A DNA stretch of 64,000 nucleotides from an uncultured Clostridia bacterium (GCA_944391745.1 CALXUS010000001.1:81425-145424), one strand, 5' to 3'. Counted from the stretch's first letter, positions 2,602 to 45,554 are shown. Translations and numbers: made by a program. Notes: generated by a model from the sequence alone, not told the origin.

Positions 2602-5319
2602 TTATTTTTGTTTTCTATCATGTTTTGTCTTTATTTTTACTAATGGTTTTAATCCTTTTTCTTTTCTATTGCTATCTATTATTACTAATGCCTTTCTTGT
2701 TATTAAGAAGATTCCGCCTGCTATCATTATTCCTAGGCCTATTTCATATATTTCTTTGGTTCCTAGGCTTCCGCTCGATGGAAATACAAACATTTTTTTA
2801 TTTGGTAATAATAATTCTTTTGAATCTGTTTCTGCTAAAGCTGGTGGATTGCCAATCGCTGTTATTCTTATATTAGTACCATTTATTCTTACAATTGTGT
2901 TATCTTCTGTATCATAATTTCCATATATAAATTCCATTTTCCACTGCCCGTCAGGTATTAATCTATTTCCTGTAGCTTTAGTTTCTACTAATCTATATTC
3001 TTCATTTATTGGTAAGTCTGGTAAAGTTATTTTTCCTGTTTCTGATGTTACATATTCATCTACTAATGTCCAACAATCTTGTGGATTAATTTTATTTATT
3101 AATTCGTCTTTTTCTGATGAGTCTTTATTAGTTAATCTATATAATTTAAATTTTGTATTTGGTAATACTGTTTGATAGTTTTCTTCGGCCACTTTAGTTA
3201 TTGTTATACTTGCAGTTTTTACTTTATAATAATATGTTACTTCTGTATTATCTTGTATATATCCATTAGCATTATTAGGTTCTTCTACTAATTCATATAT
3301 ATCATAATCTATTTTATCTTCTGAAGCTTTACTTGTTGTGTATTCTTCATTTTTTATCAAACCTTCTGTTATTTCGTCTTCTACTACTTTTCCTTCAGTA
3401 CCACCTTTTAATGGAACTTTTACTTCAGTACCCTCCAAATAATGATGTACTGTTAATGTATAGGTCTTTACTTTATAATAGTAATTTACTATTTGTGTTT
3501 CTCCATCTTCATAAGTTCCTATACTATTTTCTGGTATATATGAATCTGTTCCTATTACTCCTTCAGGTAGTTCTTCACTAATTGCATCATAGTATTCTTC
3601 ATTTGTTATTAATACATATTCCAAATCTGTTTTTGGTGAAGTTTCGTAGTTCTCTCCTATTTTTCCTTTTAAATGATCTGTATCTGTTATTGTTGTAGTA
3701 GTTAAGCCATCTTCTTTTGTATAAAGATAATGGTTTACATCTACTTTTCCTATTGTATTTTCAAAAGATACTACGACTTCTTTATTTTCTTTTACATCTT
3801 GAAATTTGTCTAATGTGTAACTACCATCATAATCTGGTTCAAATTCTATTTCTTCACCATTTATAGTTATTGTTTTTATTATATACCCTTCATCTGGTGT
3901 TATTATTATCGGCTTTGTACTATCTTCTCCATATTCTACAATTTCATACGGAGTATCTCCTGCTCCACTAATATTGCCCCCTGTTCCATCAATCTTTGTT
4001 GTTATATTATAAGATTTTATCATGTAATAATAAATTACTTCTACTTCTGTCGATGTTACTATTCCGCTAGCATTTGAAGGAGTTTTGATTAATTCATATT
4101 TTTCGTCTAAATTTTCAGCAGGTTTTGTTTCATAAGAATCCCCTACTTTATATTCGTAACTTTCATCTGGTGCTACTAACTCTTCTGTATTTTCAATATA
4201 ATGATGTACTGTAAGCTGTGCAGGTTCAAATGTTTTTGGTAAGTTAAATTCGATTGTACAGTTTGAACCACCTTGACCACGCTCTAAATAGAATATACTT
4301 AATGTATGTTCTTTTGTTTCATCAGAATATAAATCGTCTCCTATTAAATCGTCTAAATTGGCTATAGTCGTTTCGCTAGATGATCCTCCCCACCATGAGT
4401 TAGTATATCCAATTACTTTTCTAGTAGCGAAATTTATTTCTTGTTCTAATTTATCATGTATTCCACCTAAATCTATTACTAATTTTCCATCGATAAATAC
4501 CCATAAATCATCATCACCTGAAAACCTAAAGATTATATCTTCTGGATTTTCTGTTTTTGTCTTTCCATTAGATGACATATAAAAATTAATCTCTGTTTTT
4601 ACTCCAAAGTGATATATTGCATCTTCACCATTTTTTGAATTAAATGGAAAAAATCCATTTACATTCCTACTTCCCCAAACAGTAGCTTCAGTTGCATTAT
4701 TATATGTATTTTTATTTTCATTTTTTTCTAATTTTACACCACTTTGAGGGATTCCATTTGTAAAGTTTATATCTTCATTATCACTATCCATTATATATGT
4801 ACCATTACCTTGGCTTGTAAATGGCAATAATACATTTTGATAAACTGTTTTCCCTCTATTTGTAGTTTCATCAAATATTCCAATTTCAGGATAATTAAAT
4901 TGTATATTTCCTGATGAATCTAGTTCATTCTTTACCATTCCTGTTGTTTGTGAGCTAGAATAATGATTATATGCCTCACAACTAATTCTACTATTTCCAT
5001 CTATTTCTATTGTATTATTTCCATTTCTATTATTAAAGTATATACCTTGTGTAGAACCTTCTTCTGCTCTTGTTAAACTATTAAATTCATCAGTATTATA
5101 TTTAAACATAGTTACTGGTAAGTATAGTATTTCTCCAGCAGGGTATACTGGTGGTGTATCTGCTAAAGCATCAGTTGTAATATCACTGTTTCTAAATTGT
5201 GAAACAATTGGTAACTCTGATTTGTACACTAAATTTATAATCACTATAACAACTATTATAAAAAAAGCTATTGTAGAAATTTTTAAAGATATTTGTTTTT
5301 TCTTTTTATTATTTCCCAT
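2602..5319 (-). CDS. Cell-surface adhesin-like protein, 905 aa. N-terminal signal/anchor, PA14-like domain (FRFSGDDDLWVFIDGKLVIDLGGIH ... FYLERGQGGS), about 4 MucBP-like repeats (TVHHY...), a Cna-B/prealbumin-like domain, and a C-terminal hydrophobic segment with a basic tail (cell-wall or membrane anchor).
   Basis: ORF-track translation. PA14 and MucBP motifs recognised by eye. C-terminus ...GLGIMIAGGIFLITRKALVI...KTKHDRKQK. Confidence 0.7.
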   Translation of the reverse strand: MGNNKKKKQISLKISTIAFFIIVVIVIINLVYKSELPIVSQFRNSDITTDALADTPPVYPAGEILYLPVTMFKYNTDEFNSLTRAEEGSTQGIYFNNRNGNNTIEIDGNSRISCEAYNHYSSSQTTGMVKNELDSSGNIQFNYPEIGIFDETTNRGKTVYQNVLLPFTSQGNGTYIMDSDNEDINFTNGIPQSGVKLEKNENKNTYNNATEATVWGSRNVNGFFPFNSKNGEDAIYHFGVKTEINFYMSSNGKTKTENPEDIIFRFSGDDDLWVFIDGKLVIDLGGIHDKLEQEINFATRKVIGYTNSWWGGSSSETTIANLDDLIGDDLYSDETKEHTLSIFYLERGQGGSNCTIEFNLPKTFEPAQLTVHHYIENTEELVAPDESYEYKVGDSYETKPAENLDEKYELIKTPSNASGIVTSTEVEVIYYYMIKSYNITTKIDGTGGNISGAGDTPYEIVEYGEDSTKPIIITPDEGYIIKTITINGEEIEFEPDYDGSYTLDKFQDVKENKEVVVSFENTIGKVDVNHYLYTKEDGLTTTTITDTDHLKGKIGENYETSPKTDLEYVLITNEEYYDAISEELPEGVIGTDSYIPENSIGTYEDGETQIVNYYYKVKTYTLTVHHYLEGTEVKVPLKGGTEGKVVEDEITEGLIKNEEYTTSKASEDKIDYDIYELVEEPNNANGYIQDNTEVTYYYKVKTASITITKVAEENYQTVLPNTKFKLYRLTNKDSSEKDELINKINPQDCWTLVDEYVTSETGKITLPDLPINEEYRLVETKATGNRLIPDGQWKMEFIYGNYDTEDNTIVRINGTNIRITAIGNPPALAETDSKELLLPNKKMFVFPSSGSLGTKEIYEIGLGIMIAGGIFLITRKALVIIDSNRKEKGLKPLVKIKTKHDRKQK

Positions 5320-5465
5320 ATATTTTCCTTATTTTATAAATTTGTATATTAAATACTATCATTCTTTTGAAATAGCGTCAATACGAATTATTTTTTAAGA
5401 GTATATCCTTATTGTTTTTTTGCTATATTATAGCATTTTTATAGTTTATTACATTTTGATTACAA

Positions 5466-5497
5466 ATAAAAAAAGACCCTTCAAAAGAAGGGTCCCC
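5466..5497 (-). terminator. Rho-independent terminator (GACCCTTC-AAAA-GAAGGGTC followed by a T-run on the minus strand)
   Basis: Perfect 8-bp GC-rich inverted repeat at 5475-5494. A-run at 5467-5474 on the plus strand, which is a U-run on the minus-strand RNA. Confidence 0.65.
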
Positions 5498-5659
5498 AAA
5501 TTTTCATCTAGTCTGCATATAGCAAACAAATCTCCCCAATGAAAATTTGTAATGCTCAGTAATTCCCGTTTTGCCCGAAAAATTGGAGTGAGGAATGGCA
5601 AATGGTTGTGATTCTTTCAAAACGAGAAAAACCTTTTATCATTATAAAATGATAGCACT
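5466..5659 (-). ncRNA. Candidate small RNA (about 190 nt) running from a consensus sigma-A promoter to the intrinsic terminator. The class is not identified.
   Basis: TTGACA-17 nt-TATAAT on the minus strand (-35 = 5689-5694, -10 = 5666-5671). No ORF. Locally higher G+C. Ends at the terminator at 5466-5497. Confidence 0.35.
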
Positions 5660-5665
5660 TCAATT

Positions 5666-5694
5666 ATTATAGCATCTTTTTAAACTTATGTCAA
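5666..5694 (-). promoter_or_regulatory. Perfect-consensus sigma-A promoter (TTGACA, 17 nt, TATAAT) directly after the recN stop codon
   Basis: Read directly on the minus strand: ttgacataagtttaaaaagatgctataat. Confidence 0.55.
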
Positions 5695-5696
5695 CC

Positions 5697-7316
5697 CTAT
5701 GCTGACTTTCTTAATTCCATGGCATGCTTTCTAGCTGTTTCAGTAATTTCTCCATTAGATATTCTTGCTACTTCATTAATAACCTCATCTTCAGTTAATT
5801 TTTTTACCTGAGTAAAAGTTCTACCATTCTTTGATAATTTACTAATGTAAAAGTTTTCATCACCTTTAGCTGCAATACTTGGTTGATGTGTAATACAAAG
5901 TACTTGATGATTTTTTCCAATTAACTTTAATTTTTCTCCTACTGATTTAGCAGCCTTTCCACTAATACCTGTGTCTATTTCATCAAATATAAGAACAGGT
6001 GTACTATCTGTATTAGCTAAAACGGTTTTTATTGCTAACATTATTCTTGACATTTCTCCACCAGATGCTATTTTAGCTAATTCTTTTTCATTTTCACCTA
6101 TATTAGTAGATATATAATATTCAACATCATCAGTTCCATTTTTATTGAATTCTACTGTGTTAATATGTGTTATAAATGTGCTATTAGGCATTTCTAAATC
6201 GGCTAATTCTTTATTTATTTTGCTATCTAATATCTTTGCATTAGTCATTCTGATTTCATGCATTTTATTAGATAATTCTAGCATTTTTTGCTCTATATCA
6301 TTAAGCTCTTTTTTTAATTCATTATTATATTCATCTAAATTATTTATTCTATTAATCTCTTTTTCTGTTTTTTCTTTATAATCTAATATTTCTTCTATGC
6401 TATTTCCATATTTTCTTTTTAAAGAATATATTAAATCTAGTCTTTCTTCTACTTCGTTTCTTTCGTTTTCGTCAAAATACATATCTGAATTTAAAGATGA
6501 TATATCTCGTGAAAGCTCTTGCACTTCATAATAAATACTTTTTAAATTATTTAAAGTGTTATCATACTTTTTATCTAAATCGCTGATTTTTTCTACTGCT
6601 CTTATTGCCTCATTAATTTTATCTATTGCACCTTCTCCTAGTGCTAAATCTGCTTGATTTAAGCTTTTTCCTATTTTTTCTGAATTCATAAAGAACTTTC
6701 TTTTTTCTTCTAATTCTTCTTCTTCACCAAGTTTTAAGTCTGCATTTTCTATTTCGTCAAATTCATATTGTAGTAAACTTAGTTGCCTTTGCTTTTCTTT
6801 GTCATCTCCTAAATTAGCTTTTAACTCTTTTTTTATTTCTTGTCTTTTATTATATAAATTTCTATATTCATTTTTTGCAACTATAATTTCGTTACCTATA
6901 AAATTATCTAGGTACTTAATATGATATTTGGGGTTAAGTATTTTTTGATTATCGTTTTGACCATGAATATCTATTATATTATTCATAAATTCTTTTAATT
7001 CTGTCAAAGTAACTAGTCTACCATTAATTTTGCATGAATTTCTTCCATTTAAATGAATTTCTCTACTTACTATTATATTATTTTCTATAGCTAAATCATT
7101 ATTTGGAAGATATAAATTAAGTTCTACAAAAGAGTAATCTTCACCTTTTCTTATCATTTCCTTTGAGAATCTACCTCCACATATTATGCTTATAGAATCG
7201 ATTATAAGTGTTTTACCTGCACCAGTTTCACCTGTAAGTACATTAAATCCTTCACCTAGTTCGATGCTTAAATCATCTATTATTCCTATATTTTTTATAT
7301 GTAGAGTTGTTATCAT
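5697..7316 (-). CDS. recN: DNA repair protein RecN
   Basis: 539 aa. N-terminal Walker A (GETGAGKT), SMC-like coiled-coil middle, C-terminal signature and Walker B. Confidence 0.9.
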   Translation of the reverse strand: MITTLHIKNIGIIDDLSIELGEGFNVLTGETGAGKTLIIDSISIICGGRFSKEMIRKGEDYSFVELNLYLPNNDLAIENNIIVSREIHLNGRNSCKINGRLVTLTELKEFMNNIIDIHGQNDNQKILNPKYHIKYLDNFIGNEIIVAKNEYRNLYNKRQEIKKELKANLGDDKEKQRQLSLLQYEFDEIENADLKLGEEEELEEKRKFFMNSEKIGKSLNQADLALGEGAIDKINEAIRAVEKISDLDKKYDNTLNNLKSIYYEVQELSRDISSLNSDMYFDENERNEVEERLDLIYSLKRKYGNSIEEILDYKEKTEKEINRINNLDEYNNELKKELNDIEQKMLELSNKMHEIRMTNAKILDSKINKELADLEMPNSTFITHINTVEFNKNGTDDVEYYISTNIGENEKELAKIASGGEMSRIMLAIKTVLANTDSTPVLIFDEIDTGISGKAAKSVGEKLKLIGKNHQVLCITHQPSIAAKGDENFYISKLSKNGRTFTQVKKLTEDEVINEVARISNGEITETARKHAMELRKSA

Positions 7317-11279: not shown

Positions 11280-12050
11280 TTATGATAATGTCAATATTTC
11301 TGGCTCTTTTTCTGTAATTAAAATTGTATTTTCATAGTGTGCAGATAAACTTTCATCCACTGTCCATATTGACCAGCCATCGTCACCTTCGCAAATTTCT
11401 GGTGATCCTGCTACTACCATTGGCTCAATTGCTAGAGTCATGCCAGGTTCAAGTCTTATTCCTTTTCCAGCTTTTCCGTAGTTTGGAATTCCTGGATCTT
11501 CATGCATTTCTCTTCCAATTCCATGTCCTTGGAATTCTCTTATTACATCAAATCCATTTTCTTGAACAAAGCTTCCAATAGCATGACTTATGTCACCTAA
11601 TCTGTTTCCTTTTTTAGCAAATTTTATTCCTTCAAAAAATGCTTGTTTTGTTATTTCTACTAATCTTTTTGCTTCGTCTGAAACTTCTCCAACGCAATAA
11701 GTTCTTGCGCAATCACCATTAAAACCATCCTTATATGCAACTAAATCAATACTTATAATATCTCCTTCTTTTAGTATTGCATATTTTGAAGGAATCCCAT
11801 GAATTATATTATCATTTATTGATGCACAAATTGAAGCTGGGAAATCTGGAACTCCTTTCATTCCACTTGGATATCCTTTTTCAGCGGGAATTGCTCCATT
11901 TTCCCTCATTGTTGTTTCAGCAATTTGGTCTAATTCATAAGTTGAAACTCCTGGTTTAATCGCTCTTTCTATAGCTTTTTGTGCTAAGTTTGCTACTCTA
12001 CAAGCTTCTCTCATTTTTTCTATTTCATTTTTTGATTTAATATATACCAT
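11280..12050 (-). CDS. map: Methionine aminopeptidase, type I
   Basis: The conserved start MVYIKSKNEIEKMREA corresponds to the ATG at 12050. Metal-binding residues present. Confidence 0.9.
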   Translation of the reverse strand: MVYIKSKNEIEKMREACRVANLAQKAIERAIKPGVSTYELDQIAETTMRENGAIPAEKGYPSGMKGVPDFPASICASINDNIIHGIPSKYAILKEGDIISIDLVAYKDGFNGDCARTYCVGEVSDEAKRLVEITKQAFFEGIKFAKKGNRLGDISHAIGSFVQENGFDVIREFQGHGIGREMHEDPGIPNYGKAGKGIRLEPGMTLAIEPMVVAGSPEICEGDDGWSIWTVDESLSAHYENTILITEKEPEILTLS

Positions 12051-12069
12051 TTTTATTACCTTCTTTACG

Positions 12070-12155
12070 AAGCTGCTTTTGGGGACACCATCCAAAAACA
12101 GCTTATTTATTTTTTACTTTTTAGCTGTTTTTGGAAGGTGTCCCTGAAAACAGCT
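12070..12155. repeat. Two inverted copies of a roughly 33-nt hairpin-forming element in the adk-map intercistronic region
   Basis: Copy 1 at 12070-12104 and copy 2 at 12123-12155 are near-perfect reverse complements of each other (agctgtttttgga(a/t)ggtgtccc...aaaacagct). Each is itself a 9-bp stem-loop. Confidence 0.5.
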
Positions 12156-12813
12156 ATTTTCTATTGTCTATTCTTCTTTCAGCCTCAAGGGTTGTATCTT
12201 CTTTTGTTGTTTCTGAATATATATTTATTGGAATAGATTCTAATAAATTTTCATTTTTATAATATTCAATTAATGGTTCTGTATTTTCATGATATACTTC
12301 AAGTCTTTGTTTGATTGTTTCTGGTTCGTCATCTTTTCTTTTTATTAATGGAGAACCACATCTGTCACATATTCCTTCAACCTTTGGAGGCATAAATACT
12401 GTATTATATGATGCTCCACATTCTTTATTTGAGCAAATTACTCTGCTTGATGTTCTTGTAATTATATCCTTATCTGGAACGTCTAAGTTTATTACTGCTG
12501 TTATCTTTTTACCTTTAGATTCTAAATATTTATCTAAAGCTTCTGCTTGTGGTATTGTTCTTGGGAATCCATCTAATAATACATTTTCAAGTTTATCTAG
12601 TTTTCCTTCTACCATAGCTATTGTTACTTCATCTGGTACTAGATTTCCTTTAGATATATATTCTTCAGCTTTTTTACCAAGTTCTGTTTGCCTTTTCATT
12701 TCATCTCTGAAAATATCTCCTGTTGCTAAATGTACTAAATTAAATTTATCACATATCTCATTTCCTATTGTTCCTTTTCCGCTTCCTGGAGCACCTAACA
12801 TTATTATATACAT
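12154..12813 (-). CDS. adk: Adenylate kinase (long type, with zinc-finger lid CxxC...CxxC)
   Basis: Start MYIIMLGAPGSGKGT (P-loop). Lid cysteines CSNKEC...CDRC. Confidence 0.92.
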   Translation of the reverse strand: MYIIMLGAPGSGKGTIGNEICDKFNLVHLATGDIFRDEMKRQTELGKKAEEYISKGNLVPDEVTIAMVEGKLDKLENVLLDGFPRTIPQAEALDKYLESKGKKITAVINLDVPDKDIITRTSSRVICSNKECGASYNTVFMPPKVEGICDRCGSPLIKRKDDEPETIKQRLEVYHENTEPLIEYYKNENLLESIPINIYSETTKEDTTLEAERRIDNRK

Positions 12814-13126
12814 ATTCTTTCTTCCTTTCATTTAATTTACTCTTAATTGTATTATTACTATTATTTTTTATAAAGTTTTCATTTCGCATTTTATATTTTA
12901 GTACTTTTTTTTGTGTTTGTCAATTGTATATTTTTCAAGTCTTGTTTGCTTTCTTGTTCGCATATTTTTCTAGATTCTTTCTATTTTTATTTGAGGTACT
13001 AAGCTTTTGCATTACTAAAAATTTGCTTTTTTTTGTAATTTATGATATAATTATTTAAATCGGATCGTCTGATTATTCCTTCCTCTTGGATGGAATTCGG
13101 CACATTGAAAAAAGGAGCGTAAAAAA

Positions 13127-13552
13127 ATGAAAAAAACTTACATCAGCAAGACCCTCGTTACCGTAATTGTCATGATTGTCGCAATTGTATGCGTCAGCAT
13201 CCATATGTTCGACAATCGCATCACGGCATTTGATGAGGGAACTTACACCCGGGTTGTCTACTCCAATGGAACGTGGAAAGCTTATGACACTGTTACCACC
13301 AGTGTTGATTACGAGTACCGCGTCAGTTCAGAACAAGTAAAGGACTTCATCGAAAATGCAGTGTTAAAGGCAAATGGTGATGTTAAAATCACCGCTCGAG
13401 CAAACGGTATGGACTTGATTGTCTATGTTGAAGGCAGTAAATTTTCTGACAGTCAATACTTTAAAGCTCGTTTCATCGATTTGATTCTCAACCCTTACGC
13501 ATTTGATGTGCGGGATGCAATTAGAGATGTAAGCTCTGCAACCCAAGTTTAA
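13127..13552 (+). CDS. Hypothetical membrane-anchored protein (141 aa), encoded on a GC-rich insertion inside the ribosomal superoperon
   Basis: Strong RBS aaaaaggagcg. N-terminal TM. Codons such as ccg, cgc, cgg that are rare elsewhere in the window. Own terminator downstream. Confidence 0.6.
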   Translation: MKKTYISKTLVTVIVMIVAIVCVSIHMFDNRITAFDEGTYTRVVYSNGTWKAYDTVTTSVDYEYRVSSEQVKDFIENAVLKANGDVKITARANGMDLIVYVEGSKFSDSQYFKARFIDLILNPYAFDVRDAIRDVSSATQV

Positions 13553-13562
13553 ATGTGTCGAT

Positions 13563-13616
13563 AGGCTTTCACTTCTTTCCAATAATTTGGAACTGGTGAA
13601 AGCCTGTCGTTTTTAT
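13563..13616 (+). terminator. Intrinsic terminator of the inserted gene
   Basis: aggctttcac ... gtgaaagcct, followed by gtcgttttta. Confidence 0.6.
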
Positions 13617-13732
13617 TTATTAATTTAAGTATTAGATATTTCTTATTTTCAATAATATTTTATCTATAAAATTTAAAATTCTTTTATAAAAAAATGAACT
13701 TCAAGGAGTATCCCCAAAGTTCAAATTATAGT

Positions 13733-15055
13733 TTATTCTAAGAAACCTTTGTAATGTCTCATTACTAATTGTGATTGAAGTTGTTGTCCTAATTCTATTG
13801 CAACACCAACAACTATTAGAATTGATGTTCCACCAAATGCTGTATTAAATCCAGTAAATCTAATTAACATTGGTAATATAGCTATTACTGCTAAGAATAG
13901 ACCACCGAATAGTATTACTTTTGATAATACTGATGATAAGTAATCAGCAGTTGGTTTTCCGGCTCTAATTCCTGGTATAAATCCACCGTTTTGCTTAATA
14001 TTGTTAGCAACTTCTGCTGGATTAAATGTTGCATAAGTATAGAAATAGGTAAATCCTACAATTAACAATAAGTATACTATTGCATTTATTATTGTATATT
14101 GCCATCCAACATCTGATGATGATGTAGCAATTGAAAAATTATATAATACTTTTAAGAAACCTGTTAGTGATCCAACATCACTTACAAATAATTGGATTAT
14201 CATTGCTGGGAATGTCATGAATGATGATGCAAAAATTATTGGCATAACACTAGCCATTGCAGGTTTAATTGGAATATGTGTATTTTGAGCTCCAACCATT
14301 CTTCTTCCAACAACTTTTTTAGAATATTGTACTGGTATTCTTCTTTCAGATAGTTGTACAAATACAACTCCTATTATTAATACTAATACTCCTATTAATA
14401 TTCCTATGGCAGTTAATAGCCCTGTTGTACTAAATGCTCCATCAACTACTATATTGCTAGCTATAGCAACAACTGCACTTGGTAAAGATGATACTATACC
14501 AGCAAATATTAACATTGATATACCATTACCAATTCCTTTTGATGTGATTTTATCTCCTAACCACATTAATAATGAAGTTCCTGCCATTAATGCAACAACT
14601 ACAACAACTCCAGTAAGTATATTTTCATCAACGAATAGTCCTGAAGATCTATATGATAAATATATTCCTAGACCTTCAACTAAAGCTAGTGCTAAAGTTA
14701 TAAGTTTTGTATATCTATCAACTTTCTTTCTACCTTCTTCTCCACCTTCCATTGTTAATTTTCTAAGTGGAGGTATAATTATTCCTAATAATTGTATTAC
14801 AATTGATGCTGTAATATATGGTGTTATTGACATTGCGAAAATAGATAATCTTGAGAATGCACCACCTGAAATCATATTAATTAATCCAGTAACTGTATTT
14901 GAATATGATTCCATTGATGATTCCAATGATACTATATCAACACCAGGTACTGTTATGTAGCAACCTAATCTAAAGATTACTAACAATAATAATGTGTATA
15001 ACATTTTCTTTCTTATTTCAGGAGTTTTAAAAGCGTTTTTTATTGTCTTTAGCAA
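13733..15055 (-). CDS. secY: Preprotein translocase subunit SecY
   Basis: 440 aa, 10-TM SecY sequence. Confidence 0.95.
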   Translation of the reverse strand: MLKTIKNAFKTPEIRKKMLYTLLLLVIFRLGCYITVPGVDIVSLESSMESYSNTVTGLINMISGGAFSRLSIFAMSITPYITASIVIQLLGIIIPPLRKLTMEGGEEGRKKVDRYTKLITLALALVEGLGIYLSYRSSGLFVDENILTGVVVVVALMAGTSLLMWLGDKITSKGIGNGISMLIFAGIVSSLPSAVVAIASNIVVDGAFSTTGLLTAIGILIGVLVLIIGVVFVQLSERRIPVQYSKKVVGRRMVGAQNTHIPIKPAMASVMPIIFASSFMTFPAMIIQLFVSDVGSLTGFLKVLYNFSIATSSSDVGWQYTIINAIVYLLLIVGFTYFYTYATFNPAEVANNIKQNGGFIPGIRAGKPTADYLSSVLSKVILFGGLFLAVIAILPMLIRFTGFNTAFGGTSILIVVGVAIELGQQLQSQLVMRHYKGFLE

Positions 15056-15490
15056 CTATATCACCTCTGCCTTTCCGCCTAAAGCTTCAATTTGTTCTTT
15101 AGCAGATTTAGTGAATCTCACAGCTTTGACATTTAATTTTTTGTCAAGTTTTCCAGTTGCTATAACAACTATTCCGTCATTTTCTTTGCTTATTATTCTA
15201 TCTTTTATTAAGCTTTCAGCTGTAACATCTGTTACTGTAGATTTATTAAGCATTGTTAATGTTACTTCTGTATAATTTTTAGCAAATTTGTTTGTGAATC
15301 CTCTCTTTGGTAATCTTCTATATAATGGTGTTTGACCACCTTCAAATCCACGTCTAACTCCTCCGCCAGATCTTGCTTTTTGACCTTTATGTCCTCTACC
15401 AGATGTTTTTCCAAGTCCTGAACCGATTCCACGTCCAACTCTTGTTCTTGCTGTTTTTGCTTGTGCTGGTTTTAATTCGTCTAATTTCAT
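15056..15490 (-). CDS. rplO: 50S ribosomal protein L15
   Basis: 144 aa, Gly/Arg-rich N-terminus. Confidence 0.95.
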
Positions 15491-16540: not shown

Positions 16541-17074
16541 TTATTTCTTACCAGTTTTACCTTCCTTACGTCTAATATGTTCTTCAACATATTTGATACC
16601 TTTTCCTCTATAAACTTCTGGTGGTCTCTTGCTTCTTACAACAGCAGCTGTTTGACCAACTAGCTCTTTGCTTACACCTCTAACAATTATAGAGTTTGCA
16701 CTTGGTACATCAAATGTAATTCCTTCTGGTGCTTCCATCTCTACTGGATGTGAGTAACCTAAATTCATTACTAATTTTGTTCCTTGTTTTTGTGCTCTGT
16801 AACCTACACCATTGATTTCAAGTGCTCTTGTAAATTCTTTTGTTACACCTTCAATCATGTTGCTTATTAATGTTCTTGTTAGTCCGTGTAAGTTTCCATA
16901 TTCTTCTGATGGAATTTCTACTTTTACTTCTTTGTCTTCTACTTTTACAGTAACATTATGATTTAAGTCTCTTTCTAATGTTCCTTTTGGTCCTTTTACA
17001 GAAATGTGACTTCCATTAACTGTTACTTCAACACCATCAGGTATTGCTATAGGTTTCTTTCCTATTCTTGACAT
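16541..17074 (-). CDS. rplF: 50S ribosomal protein L6
   Basis: 177 aa, MSRIGKKPIAIP. Confidence 0.95.
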   Translation of the reverse strand: MSRIGKKPIAIPDGVEVTVNGSHISVKGPKGTLERDLNHNVTVKVEDKEVKVEIPSEEYGNLHGLTRTLISNMIEGVTKEFTRALEINGVGYRAQKQGTKLVMNLGYSHPVEMEAPEGITFDVPSANSIIVRGVSKELVGQTAAVVRSKRPPEVYRGKGIKYVEEHIRRKEGKTGKK

Positions 17075-17520
17075 TTGGATTCTCCTCCTTCTTTTAATTT
17101 TTTTGATTTTTTATTTATACGTGTATATAAAATAATGTTTAGTATTGTTGGTATTGTATATAATACCAATAATGCACATAACTCACCCTTAGCACTTTTT
17201 GGCATGCCAGTTGCTAAATTTATTATAATATTAAAGGTCCAATGTGCAAGTATTACTAATAATGCAACAAAAACTATATAAATAAAATATTTGATTTTAG
17301 TCTTCATGTTCTTTATTTTTATAGTTTTTATAATAGATTTTACTATTAGCACTAAGTTAATAAGTAGTAATACTATTCTTAAAATACCAATTATATACCA
17401 AATCCAATTTTCTGTTTCATTTATATTTGGTACTGGCTCTAGTGACTGATTTGCCGTTACCTTACTTGTTAATATTATCATTATTACTATAATCAATACT
17501 ACACTAAGTTTTTTTACCAA
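17062..17520 (-). CDS. Hypothetical 4-TM membrane protein (152 aa, TTG start) that fills an atypical 480-bp spacer between rpsH and rplF
   Basis: Long same-strand ORF in an AT-rich region, with four predicted TM helices. Ends at the rplF RBS and start. Begins at TTG. The nearby ATG is out of frame because of an A7 tract. Confidence 0.3.
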   Translation of the reverse strand: MVKKLSVVLIIVIMIILTSKVTANQSLEPVPNINETENWIWYIIGILRIVLLLINLVLIVKSIIKTIKIKNMKTKIKYFIYIVFVALLVILAHWTFNIIINLATGMPKSAKGELCALLVLYTIPTILNIILYTRINKKSKKLKEGGESKCQE

Positions 17521-17557: not shown

Positions 17558-17956
17558 TTACCAAACATAAGCTAAAACTTCTCCACCTAAACCTTCTTTT
17601 CTAGCTTCTTTATCTGTTTTTATTCCTTTAGATGTTGAAATTAATGCTATACCTAAACCATTTAATACTTGTGGTAATTCATCTTTGTTAACATATATTC
17701 TTAAACCTGGTTTACTAATTCTTTTTAAACCATCTATTACTCTTTTTCCGTTTTCATCGTATTTTAGAGTAATTCTTAACATTCCTTGTTTTTCATCTTT
17801 TATTTCTTCAAAAGATGCTATATATCCTTCATCAAGTAAGATTTGAGCTATAGCTCTTTTCATATTTGATGCTGGAACGTCAACTTCCTTATGTTTAGCA
17901 CTATTTGCATTTCTTATTCTTGTTAGCATATCTGCTATTGGGTCTGTTGTATTCAA
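17558..17956 (-). CDS. rpsH: 30S ribosomal protein S8
   Basis: 132 aa, canonical. Confidence 0.95.
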
Positions 17957-31728: not shown

Positions 31729-32320
31729 ATGGTTAAATTCTTTTCTAAATGCTTTCTTTTTTTATTTATTTTTATTTTAGTTTTATCCATATTTTCAGTA
31801 TCATTTTTTTACTCTTCTATTCCTGTAAATTCTGATGAATACTTTGAACAACTAGTATTATCCAATGATGGCTTTTTTTGGCCATTGCCTGGTTATTATT
31901 ATATTTCTTCTTACTTTGGAAAACGTGAATCGCCAACTTCTGGTGCATCTACTTATCATTCTGGTATTGATATTCCTGCATCTAATGGAACTAATATATA
32001 TGCTATTGAAAGTGGTACCATTACTTTTGCTAGCTGGGGCGCTGGCGGGCGGGTATACCATTGTGTTAAAGTTAGATAATCCTAGTAATATTTCTGTTTC
32101 CTATTGCCATTTGTCGCCTAATTACATAGTAAATAGAAATGACCATGTTGAAAAAGCTGAACTAATAGGCTTTGTTGGTCCCAAAAATGTGTATGGAATA
32201 AATAATAATCCATATAAAGATTCTGAAGGGAAACCGACAAATGGTGCAACAACGGGTAGTCATTTGCATTTAACAATTAAAGTAAATAATTTACCTGTTA
32301 ATCCTCTAAATTTCTTTTAA
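31729..32320 (+). pseudogene. M23 family metallopeptidase (signal-anchored), broken by a +1 frameshift in a G-run at about 32047-32053
   Basis: N-terminal half in one frame (FWPLPGYYYISSYFG...HSGIDIPASNGTNIYA...FASWGAGG). C-terminal half (YTIVLKLDNP...HLHLTIKVNNLPVNPL) is in the +1 frame. Confidence 0.65.
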
Positions 32321-44363: not shown

Positions 44364-44888
44364 TTAAGCGACAGAATAAATCCTCATCAACTTCCTTCCC
44401 GTCTCACGACTTTCTTCTTTATCAATCTTGATAGTCTCGTTAACCACCTTAACTACCAAATTGCCATGTTGAACCAATGGTTCCCAGCCATCATTTTCAA
44501 CATCGGAATGAGAAGCTTTTTGGATTTCCCAGACATCAACATCCGGAACGGGTTTTGCCTCTTTTTCTACATACTGATTGAAAAAGTCAATCAGTACAGG
44601 ACGAATTGTGTCGTCCTTAAGAGCCTTAAACAAAAGGAAACTCCTTCCATCGTCCGTTTCGTTTTTGTTTCGAACGTAAATATTTTTGAGTTGCCCCCTT
44701 GTCAAGGTCAGATAATCAAGCATTTTTCCAATGCCTTCAGGCTCTTTGTTCAAGTTTTCCCTCTCGCTGTCAGTGAGCTTACGCATTTTGCGTTTTCTTG
44801 CGTAAACTGTAACATTGGTAGGTTTTTTCTTGACAAAACCTAATTCCTCTGCTGCCTTCCGTTTTACCGTATTGAAGAATGTAGCCAT
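44364..44888 (-). CDS. Hypothetical basic/acidic 174-aa protein encoded on a second GC-rich (foreign-looking) segment
   Basis: Markedly higher G+C and GC-rich codons compared with the flanks. Stand-alone gene with a terminator. Confidence 0.55.
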   Translation of the reverse strand: MATFFNTVKRKAAEELGFVKKKPTNVTVYARKRKMRKLTDSERENLNKEPEGIGKMLDYLTLTRGQLKNIYVRNKNETDDGRSFLLFKALKDDTIRPVLIDFFNQYVEKEAKPVPDVDVWEIQKASHSDVENDGWEPLVQHGNLVVKVVNETIKIDKEESRETGRKLMRIYSVA

Positions 44889-45037: not shown

Positions 45038-45343
45038 TTATTCTTCTGAACTTGTAGCTTCAGCTTCTGGCTTTGCTTCAGGTTCAGGGGTATTATTGTA
45101 TACTTCTAATATAGCTTTTTGGATTTTTTCTCTAGTAGCAGGATTTATAGGATGTGCTATATCCTTATGTTCTCCAGTGCTCTTAATCTTTTTGCTAGGC
45201 ATAGCAATAAATAATACTCCTTCAGGATTTTTGATAACTTTGATTTCATGTACTACGAATTCGTTATCAAATGTTACAGATGCAACAGCTTTTAATCTGT
45301 TCTCTGAATTTACTTTTCTTAATCTTACGTCTGTTATTTCCAT
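45038..45343 (-). CDS. spoVG: Septation protein SpoVG
   Basis: Conserved start [11 protein letters not shown] at the ATG 45343 (RBS ggagaac). The ORF-track 5' extension is unlikely. Confidence 0.9.
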
Positions 45344-45554
45344 AATATGTGTTCTCCTTCCAAAGTTATGAATTTTATGAAAAATATCTCTATTTTTCAT
45401 ACTACTTTATATATTCGCTAATAAACTCCTTTTTCCTTCTTATTTTTACAAAAAATTTTTATGGTTTTATGTAACCATATATATTGTTTTTTTTAGCTTT
45501 GTGTAATATAATAGTTAAGCATATTATATAATTAATTAAGGAGCGTGAATTTTT

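Follow-up and report, generated by a model that had tools for sequence, protein, structure and literature searches.

A probable horizontally acquired single-gene islet between secY and adk in an uncultured Clostridia lineage

The gap between secY and adk in an uncultured Clostridia bacterium contains an insertion with a single orphan gene, here called orfX, which is foreign in composition and maintained by purifying selection. The stretch of DNA analysed (the window) comprises 64,000 nucleotides, and positions refer to it unless a related genome is named. The insertion is probably a horizontally acquired single-gene islet that lodged in a neutral slot between secY and adk, moved by recombination in its flanks, and encodes a selectively maintained product. 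The 764-bp cassette would form its own transcription unit, with an extended -10 promoter, a 68-nt leader with a Shine-Dalgarno sequence, a 141-aa ORF and a Rho-independent terminator. Transcription of the operon would end before the cassette, at the secY terminator, that of the cassette would end before running antisense into secY, and adk would retain its own dedicated promoter beside the cassette. Because the transcription units would be kept apart in this slot, insertion would cost little, and this low cost would account for the recurrent landing of unrelated accessory genes there in related species. The cassette most likely entered once, repeated acquisition being the alternative, and would then have moved between sister lineages by double homologous recombination, with the strongly conserved secY and adk/map serving as homology arms. 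The product most likely consists of an N-terminal helix anchor and a mixed alpha/beta domain of about 113 residues outside the cytoplasm.

Both adk and secY are encoded on the minus strand in a standard S10-spc-alpha cluster, with rplO, rpsE, rplR, rplF and rpsH on the upstream side and map, infA, rpmJ, rpsM, rpsK, rpsD, rpoA and rplQ downstream (Table 1). The spacer between them is 919 bp, measured from the called adk start; the mechanical adk ORF reaches 12831. This layout agrees with an earlier note, made from the sequence alone, which had placed adk and secY about 920 bp apart and had described a stand-alone gene on the strand opposite to the operon, with its own terminator.

Table 1. Features of the secY-adk region in the window, and contents of the corresponding region in related genomes (coordinates of the sequence named in the first column)
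Sequence	Feature	Position	Strand	Details
Window	adk (adenylate kinase)	12154..12813	-	PF00406 ADK; called start MYIIMLGAPG on identical public contigs
Window	adk promoter, sigma-70-type	12895..12923	-	TTGACA-17-TAAAAT, 11/12 consensus; left border of slot
Window	Insertion	12925..13688		764 bp; relative to empty site of sister genome L016 (L016 1724|1725)
Window	Left AT-rich arm	12925-13058		134 bp, G+C 0.22
Window	Putative orfX promoter	13023..13051	+	Extended -10 TGATATAAT at 13043-13051; weak -35 TTGCTT 17 nt upstream
Window	GC-rich core	13059-13615		557 bp, G+C 0.41
Window	Leader	13059..13126	+	68 nt; Shine-Dalgarno AAAGGAG at 13111-13117
Window	orfX, orphan CDS	13127..13552	+	141 aa; N-terminal signal-anchor at residues ~9-27, ectodomain ~113 aa
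Window	orfX intrinsic terminator	13559..13621	+	15+6-bp stem, then U-run
Window	Right AT-rich arm	13616-13688		73 bp, G+C 0.08
Window	secY intrinsic terminator	13688..13723	-	13-bp stem (13723-13695) + TTTTTTT; right border of slot
Window	secY	13733..15055	-	PF00344
L017	Element in adk leader	5420..5630		211 bp, GC-rich; 32-nt terminal inverted repeats (88% complementary)
L021	Slot content	4184..5462		AAA_14 + DUF4143 ATPase, split into two ORFs; matches PADLOC candidate PDC-S01
L024	Slot content	5260..5550		96-aa orphan, also GC-richer (0.375)
L026	Slot content	5534..6628		364-aa orphan
L036	Enlarged spacer (more distant relative)	5673..6470		PDDEXK_2 (Rpn-type) nuclease
L056	Enlarged spacer (more distant relative)	5418..6158		Membrane-anchored coiled-coil protein
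L062	Enlarged spacer (more distant relative)	2874..3524		Membrane-anchored coiled-coil protein

The segment of 764 bp is an insertion. In L016, the closest relative found, the sequences corresponding to window 13689-13732 and 12892-12924 lie at adjacent coordinates, and the junction is clean, without a remnant of the insert. The insert consists of a GC-rich core between two AT-rich arms; the interval 13059-13620 singled out in the earlier note matches the core, whereas comparison with the empty site extends the insertion on both sides. No terminal inverted repeat (TIR) or target-site duplication (TSD) was found at 12925/13688, where only low-complexity A/T matches occur, and a search for insertion scars in the form of direct or inverted repeats at the flanks gave only A/T-rich chance matches. 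The insert contains no mobility gene, its single ORF being without a mobility domain. The hallmarks of an IS, a MITE or an integrative element (TIR, TSD, and transposase or integrase) are therefore absent.

The composition of orfX is foreign. Its G+C is 0.42 and its GC3 of 0.451 is the maximum in the window (mean 0.144, sd 0.063 for 64 ORFs; z 4.9), and its relative synonymous codon usage (RSCU) is uncorrelated with that of the neighbouring ribosomal-operon genes (r only 0.11). The GC-rich core has a G+C of 0.411 against 0.285 for the whole window and ranks second among all 557-bp windows (z 3.8), with one other place in the 64 kb this high. Windowed G+C and codon usage thus bear out the deviation that had been estimated by eye (about 40-45% against below 30% in the flanks). 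A second GC-rich orphan is encoded at 44364..44888 on the minus strand, directly downstream of spoVG (45038..45400), and forms the highest-GC stretch in the window (174 aa, G+C 0.40, GC3 0.417). It is fixed at its site, as shown by more than 20 contigs from the same species; only its own cluster was found among 5.8 billion proteins, and no Pfam or PHROG match was obtained. Its codon usage tracks that of orfX (r 0.47) and not that of the host genes (r 0.11), suggesting a donor of similar composition, and two GC-rich orphans in one window may point to a common donor. The third highest GC3 in the window (0.289) is that of a 151-aa ORF at 31865..32320 on the plus strand, which carries a Peptidase_M23 domain (E 8e-8).

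A full set of expression signals can be recognized around orfX. The putative promoter, which like its use is predicted from sequence motifs, stands back to back with the adk promoter at a distance of about 100 bp; a stricter promoter scan missed it because its -35 element matches at only 3/6 positions. The Shine-Dalgarno sequence is situated 9 nt ahead of the ATG. No significant secondary structure was predicted for the leader (z -0.47), and a regulatory leader structure was rejected on this basis. The terminator hairpin (13559-13609) has a dG of -33.3 kcal/mol (z -9.5 vs shuffles) and is followed by UUUUUAUUUAUU; read on the opposite strand, the hairpin is without a U-run. The strong ribosome-binding site and the intrinsic terminator that had been noticed for this gene are thus both present.

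The insert sits exactly between the secY terminator (dG -14.3 kcal/mol, z -5.1) and the adk promoter. The L016 sequence runs from secY through a 13-bp hairpin and a T-run directly to TTGACA-17-TAGAAT and then to adk. The adk promoter of the closest relatives is near-consensus, located about 45-50 nt upstream of adk, and is kept in L016, L017, L018, L021, L022, L024 and L026, five of which (L016, L017, L018, L022 and L026) also have a terminator-like hairpin after secY. In these close relatives the variable DNA is always situated between the end of secY and the adk promoter. Because simple criteria detect no such combination of terminator and promoter in more distant relatives, a pre-existing gap between the two signals is proposed for the close relatives only. 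The earlier note had read the insertion as a very unusual splitting of the secY-adk operon. This reading does not hold, because the lineage already has a secY terminator and an adk promoter at the junction, and the slot is reused in relatives. The insert appears to occupy the gap between these two predicted signals and to disrupt nothing. orfX points the opposite way, and its own strong terminator would prevent antisense transcription into secY.

Elsewhere in the cluster, a 152-aa ORF (called as 139 aa; G+C 0.24) with several hydrophobic helices is found at 17062..17520 on the operon strand, between rpsH (17558..17956) and rplF (16541..17074), overlapping the start of rplF. The gap between S8 and L6 measures 486 bp in the window against 20-170 bp in most of 70 relatives, and gaps of 360-527 bp also occur in L022, L026, L046 and L080. 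The ORF matches no Pfam family, and its sole match, 28% identical, is in L046. Unlike orfX, it lies truly within a co-transcribed stretch.

For the comparison of slots, one genome per species was scanned with the window SecY, and the best 80 uncultured Clostridia metagenome-assembled genomes (MAGs) were taken (SecY identity 90-69%). No relative of orfX was found in these 80 genomes, even at tblastn E<10. The secY-adk spacer is mostly 50-350 bp and reaches 490-1530 bp in eight of the 72 relatives that have both genes on one contig. The slot is empty in L016 and L018, while the slot genes of the close relatives L021, L024 and L026 are mutually unrelated. More distant relatives have enlarged spacers with other genes, including those for two proteins of 216-246 aa in L056 and L062 that are homologous to each other (Table 1). 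The secY-adk gap thus behaves as a small insertion hotspot without mobility genes. In L017, an element unrelated to the window cassette lies between the adk promoter and the adk start codon, and looks like a MITE.

Many hotspots of horizontal gene transfer are flanked by core genes and lack mobile elements (Oliveira, Touchon, Cury & Rocha 2017, PMC5635113). The secY-adk slot has differing accessory content between two core genes and in this sense is a hotspot as defined by Oliveira et al. (2017). It shares with those hotspots the two bounding core genes, the varied accessory genes and the absence of integrase or transposase; homologous recombination in the core genes on either side and exchange of the cassette between lineages may be further points of likeness. 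On the other hand, the slot is tiny (one gene, 764 bp) and located inside the S10-spc-alpha cluster; it is defined by comparison of MAG lineages at species level and not inside a single well-sampled species, and recombination is proposed here on the basis of mosaic contigs.

orfX is a real protein-coding gene under purifying selection. More than 30 independent metagenome contigs, which stem from several studies, carry the gene or close variants of it, invariably in the order adk-X-secY, and six DNA alleles were recovered. The window allele differs from the L098/L099 allele by 10 synonymous and 3 non-synonymous changes (pN/pS 0.08), and pN/pS is 0.19 between the window and L096/L097 alleles and 0.16 between the L098/L099 and L096/L097 alleles. 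Both indels among the alleles are of 3 nt and in frame. Alternative ORFs in the core, at 13176..13340 (+), 13364..13582 (-) and 13073..13204 (-), were rejected because most substitutions between alleles are at third codon positions of the 141-aa reading frame, which the indels also preserve. A spurious ORF was rejected in view of the purifying selection, and an RNA gene because no Rfam match reached the gathering score; on the spacer, Rfam returned only sub-threshold look-alikes of miRNA hairpins, on the terminator.

The cassette is present in at least three sister lineages. For the same pairs of lineages, pS amounts to 0.10-0.11 in orfX but to 0.36-0.37 in secY, 0.24 in adk and 0.46 in map. 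Synonymous divergence of the core genes on either side is 3-4 times that of orfX. In L098/L099, secY is 87-88% identical to the window (pS 0.36-0.37), whereas the cassette is evenly about 3% diverged throughout (orfX pS 0.11), with no excess conservation of its non-coding parts. In L096/L097, the adk-map region shares 96% identity with L016, where the site is empty, and only 87-92% with the window (pS 0.24-0.46), yet the cassette is present. The L096 sequence switches from L016-like to window-like in adk near 12400 and back near 13700. The cassette is 3-4 times younger than the split of its hosts and polymorphic within the L016-like lineage. Its lower divergence relative to the flanks fits spread by homologous recombination through these conserved flanks, by which the cassette appears to have passed between lineages. 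The claim of a recent horizontal acquisition, made when only this window had been read, is supported in its main part by the foreign composition, the empty site in L016, the restriction to few sister lineages and the lack of a homologue elsewhere. The word recent has to be qualified, because orfX has been resident long enough for about 3% divergence between lineages under purifying selection.

The differences of L096 from the window are concentrated in orfX at 13335-13511. In the L096/L097/L100 alleles, and only in these, the non-coding parts of the cassette are more conserved than synonymous sites (1/338 vs 15/426; Fisher p 0.0015), and the clustering of their differences in 13335-13511 points to a mosaic tract. 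The L100 and L096/L097 alleles have six substitutions and a 3-nt deletion (Q70R, D73N, N77G, delV79) crowded into 29 nt at 13335..13363 (orfX residues 70-79), and no other difference occurs in the 5' half of orfX. The segment represents either a locally variable patch or a micro-conversion tract. On contigs L009 (equivalent to window 11765-15102) and L010 (equivalent to 12166-15355), blocks identical to the window alternate with L016/L017-like blocks of 97-98%. These mosaics could be inter-species recombinants or chimeric assemblies of co-occurring sister species.

The first residues of the orfX protein are MKKTYISK; a hydrophobic helix of some 19 residues (about 9-27) comes next, and the remaining 113 or so residues include 17 acidic and 13 basic ones. 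The protein is most likely an extracytoplasmic, N-terminally anchored (N-in/C-out) accessory envelope protein, possibly secreted. The description of a 141-aa membrane-anchored protein of unrecognisable family is upheld by the N-terminal hydrophobic helix and by searches of Pfam, NCBIfam, PHROG, PADLOC and PDB sequences, which gave sub-threshold matches only. The YxeA family (TIGR01655/DUF1093) scored 16.7 bits against a cut-off of 29.65 (E 0.008), which places orfX outside this family. A holin was rejected: the SPP1 holin family PF04688 scored 13.2 bits against a cut-off of 27, phrog_263 matched (E 0.029) over the TM helix only, and orfX has a single TM helix with no lysin nearby. PADLOC-DB 2.0 returned 0 families at E<=0.1, leaving orfX outside the known anti-phage defence families, and the best match in PHROGs was a sub-threshold one (E 0.009) to a family of function unknown.

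Larger collections gave little more. Among 5.8 billion proteins, a word-indexed search recovered four clusters only, of at least 96% identity and from the same lineages, and an exhaustive HMMER (phmmer) search of 1.84 billion representatives found orfX itself and one repeat protein, P0005. The latter is a 5070-aa SLH surface protein with Ig-like repeats of about 95 aa, and the E of 1.4e-6 is the sum over 14 weak repeat matches; orfX residues 71-110 weakly resemble the C-terminal half of these repeats, and a single repeat matches at a pairwise E of about 6e-4 over only about 30-40 residues. There was no Pfam Ig or Big match at E<=10, so that orfX does not join the Big_2-type Ig-like proteins. 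This marginal motif resemblance is a hint of beta-rich surface-protein character and not homology. No match to the insert was found in phage and plasmid collections by blastn, and no orfX relative in protein-guided scans of IMG/VR and JGI metagenome contigs. AlphaFold2 gave a pLDDT of 38 for the full length with a shallow alignment, and 55 (pTM 0.49) for the ectodomain alone; Foldseek of the PDB with the ectodomain model returned nothing credible (best E 0.09).

In size and architecture, orfX is similar to small anchored or secreted Firmicute proteins such as the YxeA family and to the membrane-anchored superinfection-exclusion proteins of the Sie2009/Ltp type (about 115-170 aa, with a short basic N-terminus, a single hydrophobic helix and a small domain outside the cytoplasm), although no sequence or fold relation is detectable. 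Like lineage-restricted ORFans, it lacks homologues beyond a few sister lineages among the 5.8 billion (word-indexed) and 1.84 billion (exhaustive HMMER) proteins searched; in contrast to many ORFans, it is clearly under purifying selection, and its G+C lies above, not below, that of its host. Our best guess is that it plays an ecological part at the strain level on the cell surface, for instance by blocking phage or bacteriocin or by interacting with the host or gut matrix.

Phage morons are independent promoter-gene-terminator units of deviant composition in prophages, for example in lambdoid phages. The cassette is likewise an apparently autonomous unit of odd composition with a small non-essential product, and has its own promoter (recognized by the sequence match to TGATATAAT only) and Rho-independent terminator around a single ORF. 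This moron-like anatomy is among the reasons to consider orfX a defence or exclusion cargo, namely a membrane-anchored superinfection-exclusion, abortive-infection or immunity protein kept for protection against phage or bacteriocin. Many Sie-type proteins carry an N-terminal membrane anchor, as orfX does, and the purifying selection, the variable patch between alleles and the defence candidate in the same slot of L021 would also fit. In contrast to a moron, however, the cassette is outside any prophage, being flanked by adk and secY with no phage genes nearby, and has no relative in IMG/VR, GenBank phages or other phage and viral collections; it has no PADLOC match at E<=0.1 and only sub-threshold PHROG matches, and its likeness to Sie proteins is architectural only. 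We therefore consider a defence or exclusion role unlikely. The earlier suggestion of a selfish or defence-related cargo gene thus finds no backing, since PADLOC and PHROG matches, a mobility gene, TIR and TSD are all lacking. Less probable still is an extended version in which a previously undescribed family of protective proteins anchored in the envelope would start with orfX and would spread without mobility machinery, with secY/adk, among the most conserved bacterial genes, serving as homology arms across species, the slot as a dedicated 'safe harbour' and residues 70-79 as an arms-race interaction surface; if it were true, such protective cargo would block phage entry or contact-dependent/bacteriocin attack in small-genome gut Clostridia.

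Decay, vertical descent and assembly error must also be weighed against horizontal acquisition of an intact islet. It is quite doubtful that orfX is a degraded remnant with little function, whether of a decayed mobile element or prophage or of a larger foreign gene for a surface protein. The weak similarity of residues 71-110 to P0005, its only non-self match, and the AT-rich arms of the insert could be taken in this sense, but the purifying selection, the in-frame indels and the complete unit with Shine-Dalgarno sequence, start codon, signal-anchor and terminator argue otherwise, and the single repeat matches are weak and short, with no Pfam Big_2 or Ig domain. A native gene, ancestral to the clade and lost in most relatives, with its composition set by protein or codon constraints, would explain the occupation of the same site in at least three sister lineages. 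This very improbable reading is already contradicted here by the GC3 (0.45 vs 0.14) and RSCU of orfX, by the clean empty junction of L016, by a synonymous divergence 3-4 times below that of the flanks and by the lack of any homologue in the 80 related genomes. Finally, the window seemingly comes from an uncultured Clostridia MAG, and mosaic contigs exist, so that a chimeric join can be envisaged; it is hardly credible, since more than 30 contigs, which differ in sample, study and assembler, show the identical arrangement, and the lineage-specific alleles are each present on two independent contigs.

The event itself is of an ordinary kind, its address is eye-catching, and the orphan gene is new. 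Current understanding is unchanged by it, and its value lies in being a clean case, which shows neatly and on a small scale how accessory genes that lack mobility functions can settle in a permissive gap and can then be passed between related species when the highly conserved flanks recombine. It also corrects an over-reading, as an insertion inside the 'universally conserved' spc region does not here amount to disruption of an operon. As a selectively maintained orphan from an uncultured gut Clostridia lineage, orfX is a candidate for function discovery.
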